Counted from the first letter of the stretch, positions 3,712 through 19,091 are shown. The stretch is DNA of 64,000 bases from Longimicrobiales bacterium (GCA_965238005.1 OZ250165.1:3328001-3392000); one strand, 5' to 3'. A program made the numbers and translations. Notes: generated from the letters alone by a model not told the origin.

Positions 3712-5814
<2,103 letters not shown>

Positions 5815-6086: not shown

Positions 6087-6557
6087 CTACCAGCGATAGT
6101 GGGCGAACGCCTTGTTCGCCTCCGCCATCCGGTGCGTGTCGTCCTTTTTCTTGATAGTCGCGCCCTCTCCCCGGCTCGCAGCCAGGAACTCGTACGCGAG
6201 TCGCTCACCCATCGTCTTCTCCCCGCGACTGCGGGCGAAGCTGATGAGCCAGCGGCTCGCAAGTGCGGCCCGACGCTCGGGCCGGACCTCGATGGGAACC
6301 TGGTACGTGGCACCACCGACGCGCCGGCTCTTCACCTCCAGAGCGGGCTTCGCGTTGGTGAGCGCCTGCGTGAAGATGTTCAGGCCTGGCTGGCCGGAAC
6401 GCTCCTCGCAGATCTCCAGAGCTCCGTAGAATATCTTCTCTGCCAGGGACTTCTTCCCGCCGACCATGAGGTTGTTGATGAACTTCGTCACCTCGGCCGA
6501 ATCATACTTCGGATCTGGGATGAGCTCCCGGCGGACTGCCCTGCTGCGACGACTCAT
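6087..6557 (-). CDS. rpsG: 30S ribosomal protein S7
   Basis: [28 protein letters not shown]. Confidence 0.99.
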
Positions 6558-6567
6558 ACCCTATCCG

Positions 6568-6939
6568 CTACTTGGGTCTCTTGGCGCCGTACTTCGACCG
6601 ACCCTGGCGCCGATCACCGACACCGGAGGCATCCAGGGTCCCCCGGACGACGTGGTACCGCACTCCGGGCAAGTCCTTTACCCGTCCACCTCGAATGAGC
6701 ACGATCGAGTGCTCCTGGAGGTTGTGTCCTTCCCCACCGATATATGACGTCACCTCGTACCCGTTGGTCAGCCGCACCCTTGCCACCTTTCGAAGAGCCG
6801 AATTGGGCTTCTTGGGGGTGGTGGTATACACCCGGGTGCAGACCCCTCGCTTCTGAGGGTTCTTCTGCAACGCAGGGGACTTGTTCTTCTTCTGATGCTC
6901 GCGCCGTCCCTTGCGAACGAGTTGGTTGATCGTAGGCAT
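6568..6939 (-). CDS. rpsL: 30S ribosomal protein S12
   Basis: [40 protein letters not shown]. Confidence 0.99.
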
Positions 6940-7061
6940 GTCAGCCCAGGTTCATTTCGTCAAAAAAACGCGCTTGCTAACGCGCTTTCAAAGCGCGGGT
7001 CCTAGCGCGGTTTCGTGTAGGAGCCGCCGACGCTTCGGGGCGTCCGTTGCAAAGACTAGAA

Positions 7062-7090
7062 AAGTTAAAAGAGGCTCGGGGGGGTGTCAA
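7062..7090 (-). promoter_or_regulatory. sigma70-type promoter of the str (rpsL) operon
   Basis: Minus strand reads TTGACA-N17-TAACTT, about 120 bp upstream of rpsL. Confidence 0.7.
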
Positions 7091-7135
7091 CGGGGTGTTC
7101 CGCCCCGAAAACCGGCTTCGGCCGGGGCATTTTTT

Positions 7136-7152
7136 GGGGGGGGGGGGGGGGG
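7136..7152. repeat. G17 homopolymer tract
   Basis: 17 consecutive G after ttttt, between the str promoter and the inserted cluster. Confidence 0.9.
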
Positions 7153-7310
7153 TGAGGTGCCCCGCCATCGCTCGAAGCGATCCCATGAGCCTCCGGCGCA
7201 GTGTCAGGCCCCGGAGATGTCCTTCCGCCGGTGAGGTCCGGCCCAGGAGGACTCCATTGTCTGAATGGTTATCAGGGGAGTGGGGATCGCGCATCAAGCA
7301 TTCGGCCTTC

Positions 7311-8483
7311 CTACTCCCTATTCTCTACTCCCTTTCTTCCGCCGCCTATAGCTACCGGAGTTCCCCACCCCCCCACTGGACGCAAGGATCGCTGTCGGAC
7401 CAGCGTCGGCACCTGTGTGATGAAGTGCGCCGTTCGCAAGACACACTCCCACAGTTGAAACGGCAATCTGGGCAGTTCATTGAACGGCCCTCCGACGCCT
7501 ACCGTAGCCTGTATCGGATTGGGCCAACGGAGACGAATTGCTTTTAGCAGATGGGCGGGGTGCCGGAAGGAGTACGCCATCGACGGAGTATCCATATAAT
7601 GCTCCTCGATCGACCACTGGCGGAGCACTGAGGGAAGGAGCCATCGGGGCAGGTGTCTGGCCCTCTCCGCCGTCGGAATGCCGTCCAGGCGGGCCCCGAG
7701 AAGCTGGTGGGCCAGACACACGGTGGATGCCACCCAATCCGCGCGCCGCCGGTCTCCCCGCAGTAGATACTCCCAATCAAAATCCTCGGGCAGAGATTCC
7801 AGCACGACGGCGATGTCGCACAGCCACAGAGGGCGGAAGGCCCCATGGCCCAACATGTGTATGCACATGTAGCGGAGATGATCTTCGGGTCCCAATATCC
7901 GCACGTCGACGTCGCCCAGCAGTACCTGCTGGGAACGCTCGTAGACATCATCCAGCGAAGGGCGGTGGAGCTGGGGCAGACCCTTGTGCAAATCGACTAC
8001 GCCCGTCTCGGCCGCCGGAGTGGCAAGTGCAGCCGCCGCGACCGAATGCTGTTCCGGCCGAACACACAGGTCGATGTCCCCATAAGGTCGCAGCCCACGT
8101 TCGGGGTAAAGTCGAGCGATTGCCCAGCCCTTGACCAGCAGAGGGTCCACACCGGCTGACTGAAGGAGCGTAATGGCCTGAACGACTTGGCGCTCGTGGC
8201 GGGCAGCCTGGAGAGTGTAAAGGCGGTACGCCTGCCGAAGTTCGTGAGCGGCGGCGGAGATGCGGAACTCGGACGACCGCACCCGCCACCACCCCAAACT
8301 CGCTGCTCCGGTCCCGAGAAGGAGCGGCGTGACCTCGGCCAGCGCGCTAGGAGAGAGAGACAAGGGTGGTGGGTTATTGCGCCACGAGCCAGCGAGCACC
8401 GATGCTACCAGCTTGCCGCGTGGCCTCAGCTTCTGGTCAGGGTGTAGACGCGGAATGCCGCGATCCCACTGCACGTATTCCAC
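7311..8483 (-). CDS. Nucleotidyltransferase family protein (NTP_transf_5-like), module B
   Basis: LLVKGWAIARLYPERGLRPYGDIDLCV (K-G...R...D-I-D) and VDLH motifs; paralog of 10466..11632. Confidence 0.85.
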   Translation of the reverse strand: MEYVQWDRGIPRLHPDQKLRPRGKLVASVLAGSWRNNPPPLSLSPSALAEVTPLLLGTGAASLGWWRVRSSEFRISAAAHELRQAYRLYTLQAARHERQVVQAITLLQSAGVDPLLVKGWAIARLYPERGLRPYGDIDLCVRPEQHSVAAAALATPAAETGVVDLHKGLPQLHRPSLDDVYERSQQVLLGDVDVRILGPEDHLRYMCIHMLGHGAFRPLWLCDIAVVLESLPEDFDWEYLLRGDRRRADWVASTVCLAHQLLGARLDGIPTAERARHLPRWLLPSVLRQWSIEEHYMDTPSMAYSFRHPAHLLKAIRLRWPNPIQATVGVGGPFNELPRLPFQLWECVLRTAHFITQVPTLVRQRSLRPVGGWGTPVAIGGGRKGVENRE

Positions 8484-8492
8484 CGCGTAGAT

Positions 8493-9029
8493 TCATAGAC
8501 AGTCGTCGTCAACACACTCAGTAGCATCTGCTACACAGCATACACCAGGATCACCGCATATTGGCGAGTTGCCGCAAAAAGGAGGAAAACGGGTTTCGCA
8601 TTGTCCCGCACTAATACACCCAGATGCTTGTGCCGCCGCCACCGGCGCGACGATCGATGCGATCACCGGTAGGAGGATCGAGATCCCTGCAACCGGTCGC
8701 AGGGTTCGTAGCACTTCCCGCCGCGAGTATTGGGCCCTATCTGCCGGCAGTGTCAGCGGCTCACTCGGCAAGCGTGCCCTGCCCAAGCGGTCCAGCGCCA
8801 TCCACACCACCGCTTCGTCGGCCGGAATTTCCAGTTCCTTTTTCAGCAGCGCGGCTACATCGGCCACGCTCGTTCGTCCATCGCAGTGCTGCCAGACCAG
8901 GGCGGCCGTGCGATTCAGGCAACGGGCCTTGTCACGCTTCAGGTCGTATACCAGGGTTTCGTCCTGTAGCTCTTCGACGGCCGGCTCGCCATGCCTCGCA
9001 CGGGGCATCAGCGCGCTTGTCGTTTCCAT
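8493..9029 (-). CDS. PqqD/RRE domain fused to twin-arginine-like signal and 8-Cys core (putative precursor), module B
   Basis: ETLVYDL...CLNRTAALVWQHCDGRTSVAD (PqqD LN-TA--IW---DG pattern); SRREVLR + hydrophobic stretch + AAAQ; 44 aa tail with 8 Cys. Confidence 0.8.
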   Translation of the reverse strand: METTSALMPRARHGEPAVEELQDETLVYDLKRDKARCLNRTAALVWQHCDGRTSVADVAALLKKELEIPADEAVVWMALDRLGRARLPSEPLTLPADRAQYSRREVLRTLRPVAGISILLPVIASIVAPVAAAQASGCISAGQCETRFPPFCGNSPICGDPGVCCVADATECVDDDCL

Positions 9030-9118
9030 CGGTATCTCATTCCGAATCGATGGCGCGTGCTGACACTACCACGATTCCCGCGATGCGCACAAGCCACAAC
9101 TCGTCCCGAGCTACCCGT

Positions 9119-9925
9119 TCACGAGCCTCGGCCCGCCTGTTCCGTCAACCGGCCTAGGAGGACTTCGGCGACTTCGGCGGCCTCACCGCGCGCGCCCTTC
9201 ATCACCGTCGCCTCGGCCACGGTCGAGCTCAGCGTCGCGAAAACCCGCTCCGGATCACGTCTGGCGGGGACGGTGTGGTTCAAGAGCTCCAGCACCGCCC
9301 GCCCAGGCGAAAGCGGGCGCGGTCGCCAGCGTACACCGGGCCGGTAGCTGGTCTCAACCACCAAACCTACCGGGAGCGGCCTGACACCGGTTTTCCCGCC
9401 CAAAGCTTCCGGGCGGATCTTCTTCGGGCGCCCACCTCCGTTCTGCCGCATCGACAAAGCCTTGGGATACGGATGCACCCGACCATGCTTGTCAAGAACG
9501 GCGTATTCATCTGAGTAGTACGTCGCCCCCGCTTCGACCAAGGCCTTGATCAGAGTGGACTTGCCGGTCATCGTGCGCCCCGGGACGACGATGGCCCTGC
9601 CACGCCAGCCCACGACGCCGGCGTGGACAAAAACCCTGCGGCGGGCATGATCCGCGATGTGTATCTGCATGTGCCCTTCGAGGGCATCCAGTGCCTCGTC
9701 CGTGTCCTTCGTTCGTGCCAACCCTCGCGCGCCCACATACAGAACGTTGAAACGGCGACGGTTGGAGCCGACCTTGGTGCCGCTGGCTATCAGCGAATAC
9801 AAAAAATCCACGCGGGGGCCGCGAGCCGGCTTCACATCCGGCGGAAGCACTCCTTCAATCCGATCCAGGATCTCCGGGCTGCTCACCCGGATCCCAATAC
9901 GTACTCCGTGGGAGACGAACGCCAT
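9119..9925 (-). CDS. HPr-kinase-related P-loop Ser/Thr kinase, module B
   Basis: FVHAGVV...PGRTMTGKSTL (Walker A) and YYSDE; near-identical to 13551..14393. Confidence 0.8.
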   Translation of the reverse strand: MAFVSHGVRIGIRVSSPEILDRIEGVLPPDVKPARGPRVDFLYSLIASGTKVGSNRRRFNVLYVGARGLARTKDTDEALDALEGHMQIHIADHARRRVFVHAGVVGWRGRAIVVPGRTMTGKSTLIKALVEAGATYYSDEYAVLDKHGRVHPYPKALSMRQNGGGRPKKIRPEALGGKTGVRPLPVGLVVETSYRPGVRWRPRPLSPGRAVLELLNHTVPARRDPERVFATLSSTVAEATVMKGARGEAAEVAEVLLGRLTEQAGRGS

Positions 9926-9961
9926 CCCTGCCGCCCACCCAAGGCGGTCGATTTTCTTTTG

Positions 9962-10036
9962 TCAGGTAGATCGCCACACCAAGACCATATCGTCAGCGTC
10001 GCGCAAGTACGGTCGAGATCCATTGTGCTGTTTCAT
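9962..10036 (-). CDS. Putative 24-aa small ORF upstream of kinase B (MKQHNGSRPYLRDADDMVLVWRST)
   Basis: ATG..TGA, 75 nt, collinear with an equal-length ORF at 14394..14468; no clear RBS. Confidence 0.3.
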   Translation of the reverse strand: MKQHNGSRPYLRDADDMVLVWRST

Positions 10037-10465
10037 CGGCAATTCGTCGCTCAAGGGGTTGTCTGAGAAGGAGTCGTGCGGTCAGGGTGCATGCACAAAG
10101 ATAGGCCCACGAGCCAAAACCAGGGAGATTTAGTTACGCAACGTCACCTTCAAAGGCGACGCTCCGAGGCAAAGCCGCGTTTACGCGGCGAGGCCGTGGA
10201 GCGAGCGTCGATCCACCGCGCCCCCAATCACCTTCCCGCCAACGCCCTCCCGCCACAACGATTGAGTTGCAGACCGTCACAGCACGCATGATCCGAGGCG
10301 CGGCCGCGGACCTCCCCGCACCCAAGTATCCTCCCGCCAATGCCCAACAACCGGCATGCCAAAAAGCCGCGCGGGACGGAGGATTTCGGGGGGTCGAACG
10401 ATGAGCAGGCGAGCGCGGATTGCGCAACGAGCATTCGGCCTTCCTGCTCGTTGACGCCCTACTCC

Positions 10466-11632
10466 CTATTTTTTTCGGTTTCTGGCAGCCGGAGGTCCCC
10501 ACCCCCCCATAGGGCGGAGGGATCTCTCGCGGACCCGCGTCGGCACGTGCCTGATGAAGTACGCCGTCCGCAAGACGCATTCCAACAGTTGAAACGGCAA
10601 CCTGGGCAGTTCATTAAACGGCCCTCCCACGCGTACCGTGGCCTGTATCGGATTGGGCCAACGGAGGCGAAGCGCTTTGAACAACCGGGTGCGGTGCTTG
10701 AGGAACGACCCCATCAACGCATCATCCATGTAGTGCTCCTCCATCGACCACTGGGTGAGCACTGCCGGAACAAGCCACCGAGGCAAACGCCTGGTCCTCT
10801 CGCCCGTCGGAATGCCGTCCAAACGGGCCCCCAGGAGCTGGTGGGCCAGACACAGTGTGGACGCTACCCAATCTGCGGGCCGCGGATCTCCCCGAAACAA
10901 GTACTCCCAATCGAAATCCTCGGGCAGAGTTTCTAGTACAACGGCGACGTCGCACAGCCACAGAGCGCGGTGCAGGCCGTGCTGGAGCATGTGTACGCAC
11001 ATGTAACGCAGATGATCTTCAGGCCCCAAGATCCGCACGTCGACGTCACCGAGCGGTACAAGCTGGGATCGCCGGTAGACATCGTCCAACGAAGGGCGGT
11101 GGAGCTGCGGCAGGCCGGCATGCAGATCGACCGCGACCTTTCCGGTGGTCGGAGCAGCGAGTGCAGCCGCCGCTTGCGCATACTGTTCCGGCCGAACGCA
11201 TATGTCGATATCTCCAGAGGGCCGCAGCCCACGTTCGGAGTACAGACGAGCGACTGCCCAGCCCTTGACCAACAGCGGCTCCACCCCCGCTGACCGAAGT
11301 AACGTGATGGCCCGGACAATCAACCGCTCCTGGCGACCAGCCGCGAGAGTGTAATGGCGGTATGCCTGCCGAAGTTCATGTGCGACGGTCGAGGCGCGTA
11401 GCTCCGACGACCGCACCCGCCACCACGCGAGGCCCCCAGCGCCCCAGCCGAGCAGTAGGGGTGCGACCTCGGTGAGGGCGGCGGACGTCAGAGACGAAGG
11501 CCAAGGTGGTGAGGGCGTGCGCCAAGCGCCGACGAGGGCCGCGGCCACCAACTTACCGCGTCGCCTCGGATCGCTGGCGGCGCCCGGATCCGGAAACGAC
11601 GACGTCACCGCCCTATCTCCGCTTCCTTCCAC
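10466..11632 (-). CDS. Nucleotidyltransferase family protein (NTP_transf_5-like), module A
   Basis: LLVKGWAVARLYSERGLRPSGDIDICV, VDLH; true start may be GTG at 11608. Confidence 0.85.
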   Translation of the reverse strand: MEGSGDRAVTSSFPDPGAASDPRRRGKLVAAALVGAWRTPSPPWPSSLTSAALTEVAPLLLGWGAGGLAWWRVRSSELRASTVAHELRQAYRHYTLAAGRQERLIVRAITLLRSAGVEPLLVKGWAVARLYSERGLRPSGDIDICVRPEQYAQAAAALAAPTTGKVAVDLHAGLPQLHRPSLDDVYRRSQLVPLGDVDVRILGPEDHLRYMCVHMLQHGLHRALWLCDVAVVLETLPEDFDWEYLFRGDPRPADWVASTLCLAHQLLGARLDGIPTGERTRRLPRWLVPAVLTQWSMEEHYMDDALMGSFLKHRTRLFKALRLRWPNPIQATVRVGGPFNELPRLPFQLLECVLRTAYFIRHVPTRVRERSLRPMGGWGPPAARNRKK

Positions 11633-12764
11633 GCTTCAGGATCACCTGGTCCATCCGGGCTCCCAGACTGTTGAACAGCACGGTTCGATCCGAGGAGCTC
11701 ATGGTGGCTGGAACCGCCTGCTCGAGGACCGTGAGCGTCTGCGGGCTGCTCTTGAATGCACGCCAGAAGCGATGGGCGGCGAAAACCAGCTCGGGAACGC
11801 CGAACGGTGGCGATTTCAGGTTGGCTTTTCTAGAGATCTCGAGGGGTTCGTCGCCCCGAGCCAATAGGCGGAGGACGGGGGAAAGATCGGTCAGAATCCG
11901 ATGGGCTCCTTGTAACGAGGGCGGCTCAGGCGACAGCGCGCATGTGTGTCTCAGAATACGCTCCGCCAACGCCAGCGCAGCGAGCATTGCTTCCGAGCTC
12001 AAGCTGAGCAGGCCAAGCCGGAAGGGTGATGCCAGCGCCAGCAACAAATCGTCTGTCGCGTCGCGGGCGACGGGGCGGGACGGTAGATCCAGGCCGAGAA
12101 GCCGAGTCCCACGATCTACGCGGGAACCCAGCGCGGCACGATCGGCCGACGCATCGTTCAGCACGTCGCCGAAGCGGGCATGGTCCAGGGCCTGGGAACA
12201 CACATCCCGGAAGGTCGATTCCCTCGCCACAACGGCTCGCGGACCGAGATCGGGGTGTAAACGGGTAGGTGTCAGAAACGACTTCACGTATCCCGGATCC
12301 AGCATTCGGCTGTCACGGATGGCGGCCTCGAGGTCGGCGTGGGTACCCTCAACGGCCCCGGGCGATGCCGGGACCTGCAAACGCAGGGGACACAGGAAGT
12401 GCGGGCTGACGGCAACCGCGGCCCCGATCCGGGTGAACACGTTGAACGGAAAAGTCACACAAACCCCCGGCTTGGTGCCCTTTCCGTGCTCCTTTTCAAT
12501 ACGGCACTGGAGGTCGGCGTCGAGGAAAAAGCACCCCCCGGAGGGCGTGGCGATATTGACCTGATCGGCTTGACGGCTAGTGGACACGCTGCCGAGGGCT
12601 GGATAGATCTGTAGCAGCTTACGCATCTCACGCTCGAGGCTGCCGCCGAAGCCATCCCCGCGGCAGCACAGTGCCGTGCACTCCGCACAGACGTAGTGAT
12701 AAACGCCGTCCGGAAACGCGAAGAAGAACGAGCCGTCCTGACTATCCGTGGTTGGTGCGGGCAC
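11613..12764 (-). CDS. YkgJ-family (CxxCxxCC-type) cysteine-cluster protein
   Basis: YVCAECTALCC ... GGCFFLDADLQCRIEKEHG...KPGVCVTFPF pattern; RBS GGAGGAG before GTG. Confidence 0.75.
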   Translation of the reverse strand: MPAPTTDSQDGSFFFAFPDGVYHYVCAECTALCCRGDGFGGSLEREMRKLLQIYPALGSVSTSRQADQVNIATPSGGCFFLDADLQCRIEKEHGKGTKPGVCVTFPFNVFTRIGAAVAVSPHFLCPLRLQVPASPGAVEGTHADLEAAIRDSRMLDPGYVKSFLTPTRLHPDLGPRAVVARESTFRDVCSQALDHARFGDVLNDASADRAALGSRVDRGTRLLGLDLPSRPVARDATDDLLLALASPFRLGLLSLSSEAMLAALALAERILRHTCALSPEPPSLQGAHRILTDLSPVLRLLARGDEPLEISRKANLKSPPFGVPELVFAAHRFWRAFKSSPQTLTVLEQAVPATMSSSDRTVLFNSLGARMDQVILKRGRKRR

Positions 12765-12904
12765 GCCCTGCTCCTCCGCTCATTTCATGTGGCGCCGATC
12801 GTTGATGGTGACCGCCAGGGTGGGGGGAAGCGCGCCGGAGTGGGCCTAACGTACAGTCTTACCGCGGTTGGCTGGACATGCCCATTCGCGAAATGTCGTG
12901 ATCT

Positions 12905-13453
12905 TCAGCAACCACATTTCTCCTGGGCCTGGGAGTTACCCATGCACTTTCCATTACAACACATTCTCTTGTCGCAAGTGGTTCCGGTGTTGTTGATGCA
13001 TGGGGTGCAAACCGGCATCCCTCCACAAGCATTTTGGGGCAGGCACGAGGTTTGTGCCGCCGCCAACGGCGCGACGATCGAATCGATCACCGGCAGGAGC
13101 AGCGAGATCCCGGCTGCCCGTCGCAGAGTTCGTAGCATCTCCCGACGCGAGTATCGGGCCCGATCCGCCGGCAGTGCCACCGGCTCACTCAGCAAGTGTG
13201 CCCGGTCCAAGCGGTCCAGCGCCATCCACACCACTGCCTCGTCGGCCGGGAGCTCCAGTTCCTTTTTCAGCAGCGCGGCCGTATCGGCCACGCTCGTTCG
13301 CCCATTGCAGCACCGCCACACGAGGGCGGCCGTGTGATTCAGGCAAGAGGCCTTGTGGCGCTCCAGGTCGTAGATCAGGATTTCGTCCTGCAAGTCCTCG
13401 ACAACCAGCTCGTCTTGCCTCGCCCGGGGCATCAGCGCTCTTGTGGTTTCCAT
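12905..13453 (-). CDS. PqqD/RRE domain fused to twin-arginine-like signal and 10-Cys core (putative precursor), module A
   Basis: Start ATG 13453 (METTRALMPRAR) after GGAGTGAGG; EILIYDL..CLNHTAALVWRCCNG; SRREMLR..LLLPVIDSIVAPLAAAQ; 48 aa tail with 10 Cys. Confidence 0.8.
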   Translation of the reverse strand: METTRALMPRARQDELVVEDLQDEILIYDLERHKASCLNHTAALVWRCCNGRTSVADTAALLKKELELPADEAVVWMALDRLDRAHLLSEPVALPADRARYSRREMLRTLRRAAGISLLLPVIDSIVAPLAAAQTSCLPQNACGGMPVCTPCINNTGTTCDKRMCCNGKCMGNSQAQEKCGC

Positions 13454-13550
13454 AGGTACCTCACTCCAAAATCGCTGGCGCGTGCTTACACTACCATTAT
13501 TCACGATTCATATGTGGCGCACAAGCCAAAACTCGTCCCGAGCTACCGCT

Positions 13551-14393
13551 TCACGAACCTCGGCCCGCCTGTTTCGTTAACCGGCCCAAGAGGACTTCGG
13601 CGATTCCCCCGGCCTCACCACGCGCTCCCTTTAGCACCATCGCCTCGGCCGTGGCCGCACGCAGCGTCGCGAAGACCCGCTCCGGATCGCGTCTGGCGGG
13701 GACGGTGTGGGCCAAGAGTTCCATCACCGCCCGCCCAGGCGAAAGCCGGCGCGGTCGCCACCGCACACCCTCCCGGTAGCTTGTCGCGACGACCAATCCT
13801 ACCGGGAGCGGTCTGACACCGGTTGTCCCGCCCAAAGCTTCCGGGAGGATCTTCTTCGGGCGTCCACCCCCGTTCTGCCGCATCGACAAAGGCTTCGGAT
13901 AGGGATGCACCCGACCACGCTCATCGAGCACGGCGTATTCATCCGAGTAGTACGTCGCCCCCGCCTCGACCAATGCCTTGATCAGGGTCGTCTTGCCGCT
14001 CATGCTACGCCCCGGGATGACGATCGCCCTGCCACGCCAGCCCACGACGCCGGCATGGACAAACACCCTGCGGCGGGCATGTTCGGCGACGTATAGATGC
14101 AAGTGGTTTTCGAGGTCTTCCAGTACCTGGTCCGTGTCCTTCGTTCGTACCAGCCTTACCGCGCCCGCATACAGAATATTGAAACGGCGAACGTTGGAGC
14201 CGACCTTGGTTCCGCTGGCTATCAGCGAATACAAACCACCGACGCGGGGCCCGCGAGCCGGCTTGGCATGCGGTGGAAGCACTCCTTCAATCCGATCCAT
14301 GATCTCCGGACTACTCACCCGGATCCCGATGCGTAAGCCGTAGGAGACGAACGCGATCCCCGCCGCCCACCCGAGGCGGTCGATTTTCTCCAT
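13551..14393 (-). CDS. HPr-kinase-related P-loop Ser/Thr kinase, module A
   Basis: FVHAGVV...PGRSMSGKTTL (Walker A), YYSDE. Confidence 0.8.
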   Translation of the reverse strand: MEKIDRLGWAAGIAFVSYGLRIGIRVSSPEIMDRIEGVLPPHAKPARGPRVGGLYSLIASGTKVGSNVRRFNILYAGAVRLVRTKDTDQVLEDLENHLHLYVAEHARRRVFVHAGVVGWRGRAIVIPGRSMSGKTTLIKALVEAGATYYSDEYAVLDERGRVHPYPKPLSMRQNGGGRPKKILPEALGGTTGVRPLPVGLVVATSYREGVRWRPRRLSPGRAVMELLAHTVPARRDPERVFATLRAATAEAMVLKGARGEAGGIAEVLLGRLTKQAGRGS

Positions 14394-14468
14394 TCAGGTG
14401 GACCCCGGCACCAACACCATCTCGTCGACGTCGCACATCTGCGGTGGAGATCCTCTGTGCTGTTTCAT
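14394..14468 (-). CDS. Putative 24-aa small ORF abutting kinase A (MKQHRGSPPQMCDVDEMVLVPGST)
   Basis: TGA directly followed by the kinase ATG (TGAATG); collinear with 9962..10036. Confidence 0.3.
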   Translation of the reverse strand: MKQHRGSPPQMCDVDEMVLVPGST

Positions 14469-14644
14469 GGGGCAATTACACCACCGCGATTGACGAGCCG
14501 ATCGCAGCGCCATTAGAAGGCCGGCGCGACACTGTAAGTCAATGCATCATAACAAGTTCAGTCAGAAGGAACCAGTCGCCCCAGCACCCTGAAAGCCCGT
14601 TCGTACAGCACGTCCTAACCACACTGGACGCCCGATCACACCGC

Positions 14645-14683
14645 AAAAATATGAGGGGGAGTGCCCATCGGGCACTCCCCCTC
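14645..14683 (-). terminator. Intrinsic terminator after rpoC
   Basis: 14-bp stem gagggggagtgccc-atc-gggcactccccctc followed on the minus strand by atattttt. Confidence 0.75.
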
Positions 14684-14702
14684 GCTCACTCAACCGGCTT
14701 GC

Positions 14703-14793
14703 CGAAGCGGGTCGTCGGCTCCCCGGAGCGACGATCTGCGGCGCAGCCGTAGAGCGTAGCGTCGGCGCGCAGAGGAGCCGACGACCCGCTTCG
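14703..14793. repeat. 20-bp perfect inverted repeat with 51-nt loop just after the rpoC stop
   Basis: cgaagcgggtcgtcggctcc (14703-14722) / ggagccgacgacccgcttcg (14774-14793). Confidence 0.85.
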
Positions 14794-14795
14794 AC

Positions 14796-17700
14796 CTAGT
14801 CGGCCGTGACCTCTTCGAGCCCGATCAGCTCGCCCGGATCCACCAACGGAAGAATCTCCTCCTCGTAGAACGATTGCTCGACCATGAACTCCACGTCCTG
14901 ATACCGATGGACACCGGTTCCGGCTGGGATGAGGTGACCGATGATGATGTTCTCCTTGAGCCCCTTCAGGTCGTCCCTGGCGCCCCGGACTGCGGCGTCC
15001 GTAAGCACGCGGGTCGTCTCCTGGAAAGAGGCGGCCGAGATGAAGGACTCGGTCGTGAGGCTCGCCTTGGTGATCCCCAGCAGGAGCGGCTCGGAGCGAG
15101 CCGGCTTCTTGCCGTCTTTGATCGATCTGCGGTTCACCTCGCGGAATTCGACCCGGTCGACGTTCTCCCCTTCCAGCAGCGCCGTCTCACCGGGATCGGT
15201 GATGCGGACCTTCTGGAGCATCTGCCGGACGATCACACCGATGTGCTTGTCGTTGATTTGCACGCCCTGCAGTCGGTACACCTCCTGGATCCCGTTGAGC
15301 AGGTACTCCTGCACGGCCCGGGGGCCACGGATCTTCAGGATGTCGTGCGGGTTGATGGGACCCTCGGACAGACGGTCACCCGCCCGCACCCGGTCACCCT
15401 CGTGCACCCGCATGTGCTTGCCGACGGGCACCGGGTAAGCCCTCTCGTCCTTCTCCCCGGTGTCCGGCGTCACGATCACTTCGCGCTTGCCTCGTTTGAT
15501 GTCGCCGAAACGTACCTCGCCGTCGATCTCCGTGATGACCGCCGGGTCCTTCGGGCGACGCGCCTCGAAGAGCTCAGCAACGCGCGGCAGACCCCCCGTG
15601 ATATCTCGGGTCTTATACACCTCGCGGCTGATCTTGGCGATGGTGTCGCCGGGGTTGATCTTCTCACCGTCCCGGACCGTGAGCTGGGCGCCCATCGGGA
15701 TGATGAACTCCCGGAGCTTCTCGGCCTTCTTCGTGCCCTTCCGAATCTGGATAGTCGGGTGCAGCTTCTTGTCGCGATCCTCGATGATCGTCATCTGGCG
15801 ACGACCCGTGGACTCGTCCAGCTCCTCCCTCATGGTCTGCTCGTCGACGATGTCGACGAACTTCACGACCCCGCCGGAGTCGGCCACGATGGGCTCGGAA
15901 TACGGGTCCCAGCTGAAGAGCAGGTCGCCGGACTCGATCACCTGCCCCTCTTCAGCCGCGAGCGTCGCGCCGTACGGAACGCTCAGGCGACTACGGACCT
16001 GGCCCTCCGCCGTCTTGAGCAGGATCTGCCCCTCGCGTGAGGTCACGATCAGCTCGTCGTTGGGCGTAAGAACCGTGGTGACGCGCTCCAGAGCCGCCAC
16101 TCCGTCGATCTTCGAGCGACGCTGGGTCTGAGCCGCGATCCGGGCCGCTGTTCCTCCGATATGGAACGTCCGCAGCGTGAGCTGCGTCCCGGGCTCGCCG
16201 ATCGACTGGGCCGCCAGAATCCCGACGGCCTCACCGATGTCGACCAGCTGCATGGTGGCCAGGTTCCGGCCATAGCACATGTGGCAGAGGCCCCTCTTGG
16301 ACTCACACGTCAGCACGGACCGGATCTTCACGACCTGAATCCCTGCAGCTTCGATGGCGTCCGCGGTCTCCTCTTCGATGAGATGGCCGGCCTGGACCAG
16401 CAACTCTCCGTCGATGGGATCGTAGACGTCCTCGAGGGCCACGTTGCCCACGATTCGGTCCATGAGAGGCTCGATGATGTCCTCACCCTCCTTGAGGGCA
16501 GTCATCTCGAGGCCGAGGATGGTCCCGCAGTCTTCCCCGGTGATGGTCACGTCCTGGGCGACGTCGACGAGGCGGCGCGTGAGGTACCCTGCGTCCGCCG
16601 TCTTCAACGCCGTGTCGGCGAGACCCTTCCGCGCTCCGTGGGTAGAGATGAAGTACTCCACCACCGACAGCCCCTCGCGGAAGTTGGACTTGATGGGGCT
16701 CTCGATGATCTCGCCGATGCCACCCGTGAGCTTCTTTTGGGGCTTGGCCATGAGGCCACGCATCCCGGCGAGCTGCCGCATCTGGTCGCGGTTACCTCGC
16801 GCCCCGGAGGTCATCATCATGTAGACGGGGTTGAAGCCCTCCTGAGAACGCTCCAGCCGCTTGACCATGGCGTCGGCTACGTCGTTGTTGGCGTGGGTCC
16901 AGGTGTCGATGACCTTGTTGTACCGCTCACCGTTGGAGATGTAGCCGCTGGAGTACGCCTTCTGAAAGCGCTTGACCTGCTCGCCGGCTTCGTCCAGGAT
17001 CTGCGGCTTCTCATCCGGCACATCGAGGTCGGCGATACCCACGCTGATCCCACCCATGGTGGCGTACCGGAAGCCGAAGTCCTTCAGATAGTCCAAGAAC
17101 TCGGTCGTACGGGTCAGCCCCACGGTGGTGAAACAGTCGAAGACGAGGTCTCCCAGCTCCTTCTTGCCGAACGTCTGGTTGAAGAAGCCCAGCTCCGCCG
17201 GGATGATGGAGTTGAACAGCACGCGTCCCGCCGTGCACCTGAGCCACTTGCCGTCGTGGTCTCCGTCCTCCTCGGGATGCTTCGGCACCCAGTACCAGCA
17301 CGGGCTGTTGAACTGGAGCCAACCGCCCTCCAGCCCCATCTCCACCTCTCCGAACGTGGAGAAGTGGGGAACGTCGGCGTAGATCTCGTCAAGGCCCTCT
17401 TCGGCAGCGGCCCGAGCGTTCTTGGGCGCCTTGCTGTTGTACGCCACCTCCTCCAGGTCCGAGATCTCCAGGGCCGGCTTGGTGAGGTAGTACCCACCGA
17501 TGACCATGTCCTGGGACGGCGCCGTGACCGGTCGGCCGTGGGATGGCAGCAGGATGTTGTTGCTCGATAGCATGAGCACCCGTGCCTCGAGCTGCGCCTC
17601 GAACGACAGAGGTACGTGAACCGCCATCTGGTCCCCGTCGAAGTCGGCGTTGAACGCCGCGCACACGAGCGGGTGGATCCGGATGGCCTTCCCCTCCACG

Positions 17701-19091
17701 AGCACGGGCTCGAACGCCTGGATGCCCAGACGGTGGAGCGTCGGGGCTCGGTTCAGCAGCACCGGGTGGTCTTTGATGATGTCCTCGAGGACTTCATAGA
17801 CCTTCGGATCGTCACGCTCGACGATCTTCTTGGCTCTCTTGACCGTCTCGGCCTCGCCCCGCTTCTCGAGCTCGTGGATGATGAACGGCTTGAACAGCTC
17901 CACGGCCATGGCCTTGGGCAGGCCGCACTGGTGCAGTTTGAGCTCGGGACCGACCACGATGACCGAGCGACCAGAGTAGTCCACCCGCTTCCCGAGCAGG
18001 TTCTGGCGGAAGCGTCCCTGCTTGCCCTTTAGCATGTCGGACAGTGACTTGAGGGGACGCTTGCCCCGACCGCGAATGGCCTTCGAACGCCGCCCGTTGT
18101 CGAAGAGCGCGTCGACGGCCTCCTGAAGCATGCGCTTCTCATTCCGGAGGATGACCTCCGGGGCGCGCATGTCGATGAGCTTCTTGAGCCGGTTATTCCG
18201 GTTGATGACCCGACGGTACAGGTCGTTCAGGTCGGAGGTGGCGAACCGTCCCCCGTCCAGCGGAACCAGAGGCCGAAGGTCGGGCGGAATCACCGGAATC
18301 ACATCCATGACCATCCACTCGGGCCGGTTCCGTTCGCCCACGCTGCCGCCCGAGTTGCGCAAGGCGTCGACCACCTTGAGCCGCTTCAGCTTCTTCTTCT
18401 TACGGTGCTGTGACGTCTCCGTGGCGATCTCGATCCGCAGCCAATGTGCCAGGCGATCGAGGCCTTTGCCGTCGGAGTTGCGGTCGTTGATCCGGCGCAC
18501 CGGGCTGTCGAGCATCTTGAGAAGCGTGCGAACCGCCTCGGCACCGATCTCGGCCTTGAACCTCTCGTCGCCCTTGTCTCGCGACTTCACCCGCAGATCG
18601 TAGTACTCGTCCTCGTCCAGGAGCTCGAGGAACTCGACATCCTGCTTGCCGGGGTGCGTCACCACGTACGAGGCGTAGTAGATCACCTTCTCCAGATCCC
18701 GCAGCGTCATCCCGACCAGGTACCCCAGCTGGCTAGGTAGCGTCTTGAAGAACCAGATGTGACAGATGGGCACTGCCAACTCGATGTGGCCCATGCGCTC
18801 GCGGCGAACCTTGGAGAGCGTGACCTCGACCCCGCAGCGATCACAGACGTGCCCCCGGAACCGGATCCGCTTGAACTTCCCGCAGTGACACTCCCAGTCC
18901 TTCACCGGACCGAAGATGCGCTCACAGAACAGTCCGTCCCGCTCCGGCTTGAAGGACCGGTAGTTGATGGTCTCGGGCTTAGTCACCTCACCGAACGACC
19001 AGGAGCGGATCTCCTCGGGAGCGGCGATTCTGATCTGGATGAAGTCGAAGTCCGAGGAGCGCTGCTCTCTCGACCTGGGAAAATCGATCAT
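14796..19091 (-). CDS. rpoC: RNA polymerase beta' subunit
   Basis: [12 protein letters not shown] catalytic motif, [12 protein letters not shown], Zn-finger cysteines. Confidence 0.99.

Follow-up and report, generated by a model that had tools for sequence, protein, structure and literature searches.

Two gene sets on the minus strand of a Longimicrobiales genome appear to encode a hitherto undescribed route to decorated, secreted peptides. They lie at 7311-14393 of the window (the whole 64,000-nucleotide stretch that we analyzed) and form two co-oriented modules, A and B, each with an HprK-fold kinase, a PqqD/RRE fusion protein, and a PF14907 nucleotidyltransferase (NTase). In the fusion protein, an RRE domain is followed by a Tat-like signal ending in AxA, a near-invariant Ser/Thr, and a hypervariable Cys-rich tail of 40-47 amino acids. 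We reason, with a probability of about 0.58, that each module is a compact ribosomal-peptide pathway in which the fusion protein itself is the substrate. The direct results behind this reading are gene anatomy, the conservation pattern, folds, the cassette's repeated occurrence, and a complex prediction that passed.

Gene content of the two modules

Both modules sit between rpoC and rpsL-rpsG-fusA. A terminator-like hairpin follows rpoC and separates the cassette from the rpoC transcript. The seven reading frames reported in an earlier note on this DNA were all present on the minus strand with the spans it gave, which are 12905-13453 (module A) and 8493-9029 (module B) for the complete fusion genes and otherwise those below.

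7298..7312, no strand: 15-nt flank repeat at the 3′ end of module B, twin at 10431-10445
7311..8483, minus: ntB, PF14907 nucleotidyltransferase, 390 aa (PF14907, E 2.9e-29)
8496..8624, minus: pqqB residues 136-178, Ser136 and 8-Cys variable core (type I)
8625..8726, minus: pqqB residues 102-135, Tat-like signal (SRREVLRTLR, hydrophobic segment with KD19 2.34, AAAQA)
8760..9029, minus: pqqB residues 1-90, RRE domain (PF05402, E 9e-9)
9119..9925, minus: kinB, HprK-fold kinase, 268 aa (ORF; partial TIGR04352 match; structure model)
9926..10044, minus: conserved 5′ region of module B, homologous to 14394-14477
10466..11632, minus: ntA, PF14907 nucleotidyltransferase, 388 aa (PF14907, E 1.8e-28)
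11613..12764, minus: YkgJ/FliB-like CxxCxxxCC protein, 383 aa, accessory gene (ORF, Atlas neighbours)
12908..13048, minus: pqqA residues 136-182, Ser136 and 10-Cys variable core ending CGC (type II)
13049..13150, minus: pqqA residues 102-135, Tat-like signal (SRREMLRTLRR, hydrophobic segment, AAAQT; alignments, column statistics)
13184..13453, minus: pqqA residues 1-90, PqqD-type RRE (PF05402, E 2.4e-7)
13551..14393, minus: kinA, HprK-fold P-loop kinase, 280 aa (ORF; partial TIGR04352 match; 82% identical to kinB)
14394..14477, minus: conserved 5′ region of module A, homologous to the module B 5′ region
14653..14683, minus: strong terminator-like hairpin after rpoC (14 pairs, 11 of them G-C, T tail)

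The enzymes proved to be what the earlier note had proposed, an HprK-like kinase and an NTP_transf_5 protein. TIGR04352 (HprK-related kinase A) is the best NCBIfam match of both kinases; it covers the P-loop core and is partial, with 53.9 bits for kinA and 55.6 bits for kinB, short of the curated cutoff of 200. The AF2 model of kinB is confident (pLDDT 89.8), and its best structural matches are HPr kinase/phosphorylases (E 3e-4 to 1e-3); the PDB contains no sequence relatives of the kinase. Walker A residues G121 and K122, as well as D139, are invariant across 22 kinases. The ancestral start of kinB has been lost, with a replacement ATG 12 codons downstream. PF14907 matched the two NTases at 100.2 and 102.8 bits (cutoff, 31.2). 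Residues D136, D138, and D178 (ntB numbering) are conserved in at least 95% of 8 aligned NTases, and the acidic motif reads GDIDL in ntB and GDIDI at the aligned place in ntA. Neither kinase nor NTase has a membrane segment (maximum KD19, 1.04 and 1.28). ntB begins 9 nt past the pqqB stop, and the start of ntA overlaps the YkgJ-like gene by 20 nt.

That accessory gene occurs in module A only, with orthologues 83-84% identical in four other loci. Its YkgJ-type label is tentative: the protein carries the CxxCxxxCC motif, and the Atlas clusters closest to it carry PF03692 or FliB_C (feature neighbours, 0.91-0.97), but the Pfam search, PF03692 and PF27117 included, gave no match at E ≤ 0.1. The FliB model NF038110 matched weakly (E 0.023). 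An ORF scan of the locus bore out the reported absence of lasso cyclase, B2 peptidase, radical SAM, YcaO, and LanM genes near either module. No ABC transporter was present among the cassette ORFs or in the 72 and 74 flanking ORFs scanned, and no precursor-specific protease is encoded among the cassette ORFs.

The fusion protein as a candidate substrate

PF05402 matches both fusion proteins (31.4 and 36 bits; cutoff, 23.4), as their PqqD-fusion label implied, and the pqqA start, ATG 13453, agrees with homologues. Fold searches with the pqqB RRE placed the RREs of lasso B1 proteins (5v1u, 6jx3) and CteB at the top of both searches (Z 7.1, 7.0, and 6.4; rmsd 2.5-3.3 over 68-74 residues). The fusion protein model is weak overall, with a pLDDT of 57.9 and values below 50 for residues 87-135. 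It shows the RRE topology at a modest pLDDT of 50-65 and models the pqqB tail as a compact mini-domain (pLDDT 77-85).

Conservation divides the protein. Among 113 type-I proteins, leaders have a mean pairwise identity of 85%, against 34% for cores with Cys excluded, and the conserved pre-core sequence reads SRRxxLRxL...P..xSIVAP.AAxAxS. Tat signals follow the consensus [ST]-R-R-x-hydrophobic-hydrophobic-[KR], then a hydrophobic region and an AxA site. The fusion signal fits motif, region, and site, but it is internal, starting at residue 102 behind the RRE, rather than N-terminal. A Tat-like signal behind a 100-aa domain is atypical. Among 150 distant representatives, position 102 is S or T in 136, R103 is found in 150 and R104 in 149, and the twin arginines with a hydrophobic segment are present in 148. 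The AxA pair is well kept (A132 in 122, A134 in 131), and the second residue after it is S in 109 and T in 30 (S/T, 139/150), with neither in 11. Eight Cys residues are found in 113 of 115 proteins. Tails run from about 5 to 190 aa, some of them low-complexity (His/Asp, Gly/Lys, or Ser-rich runs), and Cys-free tails exist. The alignments contain no conserved core Ser/Thr besides the one at the junction. The genome encodes TatC and two bacterial signal peptidases I; TatC only indicates that the Tat route exists, and we infer that the fusion protein would use it.

Complex prediction paired kinB with pqqB at 0.79 in 3/3 runs, with 0.00 for the best control. Of 157 solved complexes, 116 scored this high, as did 2 of 215 mismatched pairs. 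The runs share at least 90% of contacts, with a partner pLDDT of at least 77. Fusion residues 17-39, 124-132, and 134-137 are in predicted contact with kinase residues that include H101, R117, and E140; the P-loop-facing residue is not given. The prediction supports binding of the fusion protein by the kinase.

The cassette design recurs in Gemmatimonadota (24/301 genomes) and in a second phylum, labelled Acidobacteriota (20/301 genomes), and matches at E ≤ 1e-30 number at least 1,479 protein clusters (50% identity level). Kinase and fusion genes are adjacent in all 24 distinct first-phylum loci, 22 of which have a full NTase. In the second phylum, all three genes are adjacent in 11/20 loci, and another 6 have an orphan fusion gene, no enzyme being encoded within roughly 8 kb. 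Orphans also occur in genomes G438 and G351, which have a full cassette elsewhere, and in G224 a single enzyme set accompanies three fusion genes in tandem. Kinase/RRE/NTase sets recur without lasso B or C genes, as had been proposed. The suggestion that the precursor is a Cys-rich peptide carried on its own RRE gained from the conserved leader, hypervariable core, tandem and orphan copies, and predicted kinase docking. The earlier note had overlooked that a Tat-like signal and an AxA site separate RRE from core.

We envisage a pathway that would begin in the cytoplasm, with the N-terminal RRE docking the HprK-fold kinase and holding the fusion's own conserved SIVAP segment. Docking would present a Ser, replaced by Thr in some relatives, 1-3 residues past the AxA site. 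The kinase would phosphorylate this residue, possibly more than once, as happens in the linear polyphosphorylated peptides (LPPs) discussed below. A sugar or nucleotide may next be added to the phosphate by the PF14907 transferase. Directed by the twin-arginine signal, the C-terminal part would then cross the membrane, where housekeeping signal peptidase I could cut at AxA and release a disulfide-rich peptide of 40-47 aa, modified near its new N terminus; RRE and signal would stay behind. The peptide might be antimicrobial, signalling, or matrix-associated. No protease or exporter would be expected in the cassette, because the Tat-like signal and AxA site lie between RRE and core.

What defines RiPP pathways is that a short leader is read in trans by an RRE, either separate or part of an enzyme. 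This arrangement would be reversed in a precursor with its own RRE and then a general export signal, and the fusion would explain how a three-gene pathway is complete without protease or exporter. It would extend kinase/NTase tailoring, published for lasso and LPP peptides of Bacillota, to Gemmatimonadota and Acidobacteriota. Since the candidate acceptor residue is clear, the function of the PF14907 transferase becomes easier to test. The family is wide in Cys frameworks, knottin-like ones included, and may be an untapped source of stable secreted mini-proteins. Tentatively, and with doubt outweighing confidence, we consider the cassette a member of a very large, multiphylum, and hitherto undescribed class of "self-leadered" ribosomal peptides. 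Here the cis-fused RRE would grip its own twin-arginine signal, like a built-in Tat proofreading chaperone, and hold back export until the kinase and nucleotidyltransferase put a phosphate-linked tag on the first core residues. General Tat/signal peptidase machinery would then release the hypervariable peptides, knottin-like or other. If true, the class would offer a general means of diversifying secreted mini-proteins that bear a phospho-tag, and would stand apart from every leader-in-trans RiPP class.

Known systems and rival explanations

The earlier note had called this an unclassified peptide-modification system. It is not wholly unclassified: the enzyme set and logic are common to the LPPs (LppA/K/B/S/D/N) of Bacillota (Popov 2026, PMC13381572). 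LPP clusters, as described there, have an HprK-like kinase, an RRE, and an NTP transferase but no macrolactam cyclase. Each encodes one to three precursors, whose N-terminal part is conserved and whose C termini vary widely; the clusters are embedded in capsule loci and patchily distributed, though called restricted to Bacillota. The cassette resembles LPPs in enzyme set, lack of cyclase, precursor makeup, patchy spread, and polysaccharide-locus links. LppK, the HprK-like enzyme, polyphosphorylates core Ser3, beside the cleavage site of a signal-peptidase-I-like enzyme; LppN showed no activity in the study's heterologous host. The cassette's conserved Ser/Thr, 2 residues past AxA where the LPP Ser is 3 past its cleavage site, is only suggestive of the same chemistry. 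Against the parallel, LppK did not phosphorylate an S3T variant, whereas 30 of our 150 representatives have Thr as the hydroxyl residue and 11 lack both Ser and Thr there.

The systems differ in several respects. The LPP RRE is a discrete protein; here it is the N-terminal domain of a precursor-like protein, with no separate PqqD gene. LPP clusters have a SipW/archaeal-type signal peptidase I and an MsbA-like export pump, and the cassette has neither; TIGR02228 (SipW-type peptidase) had no match at E ≤ 0.001 in this genome, which is 95.85% complete. The LPP leader YxxPxVLxHQxIxFETxxS is absent from the fusion alignments, with the twin-arginine signal and AxA in its place. Unlike LPPs, fusion cores are Cys-rich, and their hosts are Gemmatimonadota and the second phylum. 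The LPP transferase is LppN, and the candidate counterpart in the cassette is a PF14907 protein.

The paeninodin/pseudomycoidin lasso systems share a tailoring set of HPr-kinase homologue, PqqD-type B1 RRE, and nucleotidyltransferase, and in pseudomycoidin the NTase adds hexoses to the phosphate (PMC8498205). The cassette RRE is structurally closest to lasso B1 proteins (5v1u, 6jx3). In lasso systems, however, the phosphorylated Ser is C-terminal, while our conserved Ser is at the leader/core junction. Lasso clusters also have a macrolactam synthetase (C) and a B2 cysteine peptidase, neither of which is in or near the cassette; genome-wide, the synthetase model reached at most 57 bits (cutoff, 300), and one marginal PF13471 match lies 620 kb away. 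DUF2282 precursors carry general-secretion signal peptides and pair with DUF2063 RREs (PMC12710340). As with the fusion protein, the precursor itself includes a general export signal, which makes a dedicated exporter or leader peptidase unnecessary. That signal is N-terminal and Sec-type, with a separate RRE and other enzymes, and ours is Tat-like, internal, and placed after an RRE on the same chain. The kinases fall far below the TIGR04352 cutoff (53.9 and 55.6 versus 200 bits), the fusions had no match to its PqqD partner model at E ≤ 0.1, and we found no paper mentioning the TIGR04352 system.

We think it unlikely, though worth weighing, that the phospho-Ser/Thr of a membrane-held fusion protein accepts or primes a sugar chain linked through phosphate. 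Instead of a free bioactive peptide, the cassette would then yield a glycan anchored on a peptide, or else a component of matrix or capsule, and only a short decoration would form in this genome, which lacks neighbouring glycosyltransferases. The earlier note held that polysaccharide loci with other substrates would count against its idea, and this applies partly. A PF00953 (WecA/MraY-type) phosphoglycosyl transferase lies directly upstream in 5/8 scanned full second-phylum cassettes (L085, L086, L087, L089, and L094), and the true substrate or product may therefore involve polysaccharide. GT4-family transferases and sugar epimerases are near L085, L086, and L089, Wzz/BY-kinase near L077, and GtrA near L082; GlcNAc and GT2 transferases adjoin the G255 cassette. 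LPP clusters likewise lie within capsule loci (PMC13381572). Yet most Gemmatimonadota cassettes, both modules here included, stand alone amid housekeeping genes, a mere glycan anchor needs no hypervariable Cys-framework tail, and closeness to glycan loci does not identify a substrate.

A plain membrane anchor would account equally well for the hydrophobic segment (KD19 2.34). With such a span, a compact mini-domain for a tail, and no precursor-specific protease encoded, the fusion might stay uncleaved as a single-pass membrane protein, RRE inside and Cys-rich knob outside, and recruit kinase and NTase to the membrane for action on another substrate, the tail serving as a sensing or binding domain. 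We regard this as distinctly improbable: the AxA pair and twin arginines are conserved far more than an anchor requires, tails vary from about 5 to 190 aa and include low-complexity runs, up to three tandem fusion genes share a single enzyme set, and the cassette offers no other conserved candidate substrate gene. A kinase with a Cys-rich core also recalls class III/IV lanthipeptide logic, in which phosphorylated core Ser/Thr would be eliminated to dehydro-amino acids and attacked by core Cys to form thioether rings. This is barely credible here, as the cassette ORFs have no lyase or cyclase domain, core Ser/Thr are not conserved apart from the junction residue, Cys-free tails exist, and even Cys counts fit disulfide pairing.

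Relation between the modules

The modules are clearly homologous. DNA at 8628-10044 and 13052-14477 is 85% identical, and at 7273-8427 and 10406-11567 it is 78% identical; at the protein level, kinases share 82%, fusions 64-68%, and NTases 72%. Homology extends into the flanks, as claimed: there are exactly two copies of the 15-mer GCATTCGGCCTTCCT, at 7298 and 10431 (expected, 0.02), and the aligned upstream blocks have 87% column identity. Contigs of other public runs bridge the module junction with zero differences (e.g., 9774-10656), and the tandem arrangement is therefore not an assembly artefact. The term "duplicated" holds for this homology and fails for a recent split. A tree of the kinases pairs kinB with one from another genome (L045; support, 100/96) as its sister, rather than with kinA; the modules are therefore old paralogues or separate acquisitions, not a recent duplication in place. 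The rpoC/rpsL location of the cassette is fixed in Longimicrobiales and unusual. DNA similarity between the modules stops precisely at the leader/core border, at 13052 in module A and 8628 in module B.

Two modules between rpoC and rpsL

Few bacterial gene strings are as highly conserved as the rpoC-rpsL string, which here is split by a cassette. Using ORF calling, with Pfam on the flanks, we found seven genes on the minus strand in two co-oriented modules, as the earlier note had described.

Genes of the cassette and its flanks
14796-19091: rpoC, flank of the cassette (Pfam)
13551-14393, minus strand: kinA, HprK-fold kinase, module A
12905-13453, minus strand: pqqA, fusion protein (RRE, Tat-like signal, variable core), module A
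11613-12764, minus strand: YkgJ-like gene, module A
10466-11632, minus strand: ntA, nucleotidyltransferase (NTase), module A
9119-9925, minus strand: kinB, HprK-fold kinase, module B
8493-9029, minus strand: pqqB, fusion protein, module B
7311-8483, minus strand: ntB, NTase, module B
6568-6939: rpsL, other flank (Pfam)
6087-6557: rpsG, other flank (Pfam)
3712-5814: fusA, other flank (Pfam)

A strong terminator-like hairpin lies 3′ of rpoC at 14653-14683. About 100 nt 5′ of each kinase is conserved between the two modules, which suggests that each has a 5′ region of its own. We call no promoter, because scanning for sigma-70 sites yielded 1 where 1.5 were expected, and Rfam returned no RNA family over 6500-15000 at E ≤ 0.1. 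The same intergenic site (window 6940-14795) holds the cassette in the Longimicrobiales loci L043, L045 to L048, and L051 to L053. Longimicrobiales thus have a conserved insertion site, as rpoC and/or rpsL-rpsG-fusA flanks were seen in 8 of the 17 named loci. At this site, another genome, G224, carries a single kinase with three fusion genes in tandem, a YkgJ-like gene, and one NTase.

The modules are paralogous, with DNA identity of 85% over 8628-10044 versus 13052-14477 and 78% over 7273-8427 versus 10406-11567. The homology noted earlier in the flanks is also there: a 15-mer occurs only at 7298 and 10431, in addition to the conserved stretch 5′ of the kinases. The earlier idea of a duplicated module holds as far as paralogy goes. 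In a kinase tree of 23 rows, from which three rows duplicating other loci were dropped, kinB is sister to the kinase of L045, a locus of another genome (support, 100/96), with kinA outside the pair; L052, whose rpoC is the nearest at 97% identity, has one module only. This grouping and the single module of L052 argue that A and B are paralogous lineages now in tandem rather than recently duplicated. The NTase tree is an unresolved polytomy. The junction between the modules is spanned by contigs from other public runs that show zero differences. Many contig joints between modules, such as 9172 to 13612, were considered as single-module variants and rejected: their sides are short or there are extra letters, and the contigs come from metagenomes. 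In L052, the NTase of the single module matches in two pieces in different frames (L052:7652-8822), which suggests a frameshift or a sequencing error.

Searches of the window's own genome found no further copy of the kinase or fusion gene and one distant extra PF14907 gene. This third NTase (L007:691-2043 in G000:C1; 450 amino acids; E = 4.2e-19) lies about 250 kb upstream of the window and adjoins a class I methyltransferase and a 256-amino-acid protein with no Pfam match; the same searches found no kinase or PqqD fusion near it.

The enzymes and the fusion protein

Pfam found PqqD (PF05402) in both pqqA and pqqB and NTP_transf_5 (PF14907) in both ntA and ntB. It gave nothing for the YkgJ-like protein at E ≤ 0.1; this protein has a CxxCxxxCC motif, and its closest Atlas clusters are PF03692 and FliB_C proteins. 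Both kinases match only the P-loop core of NCBIfam TIGR04352, "HprK-related kinase A" (54 to 56 bits; cutoff, 200). The AF2 model of kinB, from an alignment of 22 kinases, is confident (pLDDT, 89.8). Its top structural matches are the HPr kinase/phosphorylases 1kkl, 1kkm, 2qmh, 1ko7, 3tqf, and 1knx (E = 3e-4 to 1e-3); PEP carboxykinases come next. The ancestral start is lost in kinB, which reads CAA where kinA has ATG, with an in-frame TGA ahead (9925-9965 versus 14393-14400); kinB begins at a new ATG 12 codons downstream, where kinA reads ATC.

Alignments give the order of the fusion protein as an RRE domain (residues 1 to 90), a linker, a signal segment, a Ser, and a variable tail. The AF2 model of pqqB is weak overall (pLDDT, 57.9). 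RRE structures top both Foldseek and VIA-align: TbiB1 (5v1u), lasso B1 (6jx3; 28% identity, Z = 7.0), and CteB (Z = 7.1). Since the fold-search rows span residues 14 to 92, we claim no fold family for the Cys-rich tail beyond AF2 secondary structure. Pairwise identity, averaged over 113 close homologues whose tails have eight cysteines, is 85% up to the first core Cys; beyond it, the mean is 48%, or 34% when the Cys columns are excluded. Exactly eight cysteines occur in 113 of 115 motif-bearing proteins, in the frame C-x5-C-x6-9-C-x5-6-C-x5-CC-x6-8-C-x4-C. The leader/core border is the exact end of the DNA similarity between the modules. The pqqA core, with 10 Cys and a CGC end, is unlike the 8-Cys frame. 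Tails of relatives range from about 5 to 190 residues and may be 6-Cys, knottin-like, Cys-free cationic, or rich in Ser, His/Asp, or Gly/Lys. We found no rule linking YkgJ presence to Lys-rich type II cores (the 10-Cys pqqA kind), because L052 and L053 have type II cores without YkgJ. Directly downstream of the 6-Cys fusion gene of L033 is a 307-amino-acid MauE-domain membrane protein (L033:10378-11301 in G283), which would fit disulfide formation outside the cytoplasm.

We then searched a profile of 18 diverse fusion members against 50%-identity clusters. It matched 10,179 clusters at E ≤ 1e-3, at least 1,479 of them at E ≤ 1e-30, and we examined the best 150. In 148 of these, RR precedes a hydrophobic segment. 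The signal reads [S/T]-R-R-x-h-h-[R/K], about 20 hydrophobic residues, and then A-x-A. In the 150 aligned to the profile, position 102 is S in 114 and T in 22, R103 is kept in all, and R104 is kept in 149; P121 (143), S/T at position 125 (148), P129 (147), A132 (122), and A134 (131) follow. The hydrophobic region has a KD19 of 2.34. A twin-arginine signal consists of an RR motif, a hydrophobic region, and AxA; the fusion agrees with this consensus, but its signal is internal. TatC is encoded in the genome, as are two signal peptidases I of the bacterial type; a search of it for a SipW-type peptidase found none. Position 136 is S in 109, T in 30, and another residue in 11. Signal peptidase is not known to need a hydroxyl at the second position beyond AxA, which makes residue 136 the best candidate for the modified site.

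The predicted kinB-pqqB pairing, that of kinB with its fusion protein, modeled from our own alignments, scored 0.79 in all three runs, versus 0.00 for the best of three controls. Of 157 solved complexes, 116 attain this mark; of 215 mismatched pairs, 2 do. At least 90% of contacts are common to the runs, with partner pLDDT of at least 77. PDB sequence searches with the fusion profile, kinB, ntB, and a kinase profile gave nothing useful; as no sequence relative of the kinase was found there, a score due to memorized structures is unlikely. In the model, kinase helices 206 to 233 pack on the RRE sheet (17 to 39) and on the fusion's own segment 124 to 132, and the interface takes in fusion residues 134 to 137 and 147 to 155 and kinase H101, R117, and E140. 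The prediction supports binding of the fusion protein by the kinase; the residue facing the P-loop is not given by the model.

Recurrence and proposed role

At E ≤ 1e-5, there are matches in 24 of the 301 genomes, and 19 of the 128 genera, of the window's phylum. The 17 named loci are from Gemmatimonadota-lineage MAGs, except one labeled Acidobacteriota, and come from a profile built on closer homologues, which reaches close relatives only. The kinase adjoins the fusion gene in 24 of 24 distinct loci, and 22 have a full NTase (L029 has a fragment only; L033 is uncertain). The phylum of the Acidobacteriota-labeled genome has matches at E ≤ 1e-15 in 20 of its 301 genomes. Among 20 loci fetched from this second phylum, all three genes are adjacent in 11, and 3 contain two of them; the other 6 are orphan fusion genes, and some of their genomes carry a complete cassette at another locus. 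By Pfam, we scanned 72 of 124 ORFs of first-phylum loci and 74 of 134 of second-phylum loci, leaving out small and far-flank ORFs and L028, L090, and L091. No lasso cyclase, B2 peptidase, radical SAM, YcaO, or LanM was among the 72 and 74 ORFs scanned. Among these ORFs, the module recurs without lasso B/C genes in both phyla, as the earlier note had anticipated.

The nearest known system is that of the linear polyphosphorylated peptides (LPPs), described in Bacillota and called restricted to them (Popov et al. 2026; PMC13381572). Their precursors are reported to have conserved N termini, variable C termini, and polyphosphorylation at core Ser3, with a link between the clusters and capsule loci. 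The cassette resembles them in its enzyme logic and in where the candidate Ser lies, so the earlier label of an unclassified system holds only partly; it lacks a discrete RRE, the SpI peptidase, the pump, and the leader motif, four of their defining features (PMC13381572). We therefore filed it, by analogy, as probably LPP-like in its working and not as an LPP member. In lasso precedents, the kinase acts on a C-terminal Ser and the NTase adds hexoses to the phosphate (PMC8498205). PMC12710340 reports that 21% of PF05402 proteins exceed discrete-RRE length yet have no other Pfam domain; it mentions Sec-signal precursors in other systems, and these passages have no description of an RRE-precursor fusion. 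Nor did we find this design in the limited collection of literature searched.

We propose that the cassette is related to the LPP systems, comprises three genes, is self-leadered and Tat-signal-bearing, and makes secreted disulfide-rich peptides tagged near the N terminus; we give this a probability of a little under 60%. The observation in the earlier note is confirmed and its interpretation partly right. The note had named polysaccharide loci as a setting that would speak against it, and glycan genes are indeed present at second-phylum cassettes: a PF00953 phosphoglycosyl transferase is directly upstream of 5 of 8 full cassettes scanned, and glycosyltransferases, sugar epimerases, and Wzz/BY-kinase or GtrA are nearby. 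A glycan-linked role is what these neighbors would favor; with the Longimicrobiales cassettes set among rpoC and ribosomal genes, we consider it unlikely. That the fusion protein is an adaptor that stays uncleaved seems to us quite improbable, given the conserved AxA pair and twin arginines. Lanthipeptide-like chemistry was set aside, as no lyase or cyclase was found in the cassette ORFs. So was a toxin-antitoxin reading: in L030 (10775-12475, G142), an AbiEii nucleotidyltransferase toxin gene and a 283-amino-acid ORF with no Pfam match lie between the fusion gene and the NTase, as part of an insertion between cassette genes.

Other neighbors were seen in the second phylum. The orphan fusion genes of L080, L084, and L088 adjoin giant surface proteins of 1,300 to 2,600 amino acids with cadherin-like, Big, DUF4214, CarboxypepD_reg, or Peptidase_C25 domains. 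In L086, L087, and L089, TsaB-like (PF00814) and RimI-like GNAT genes lie downstream of the NTase and may simply be housekeeping neighbors.
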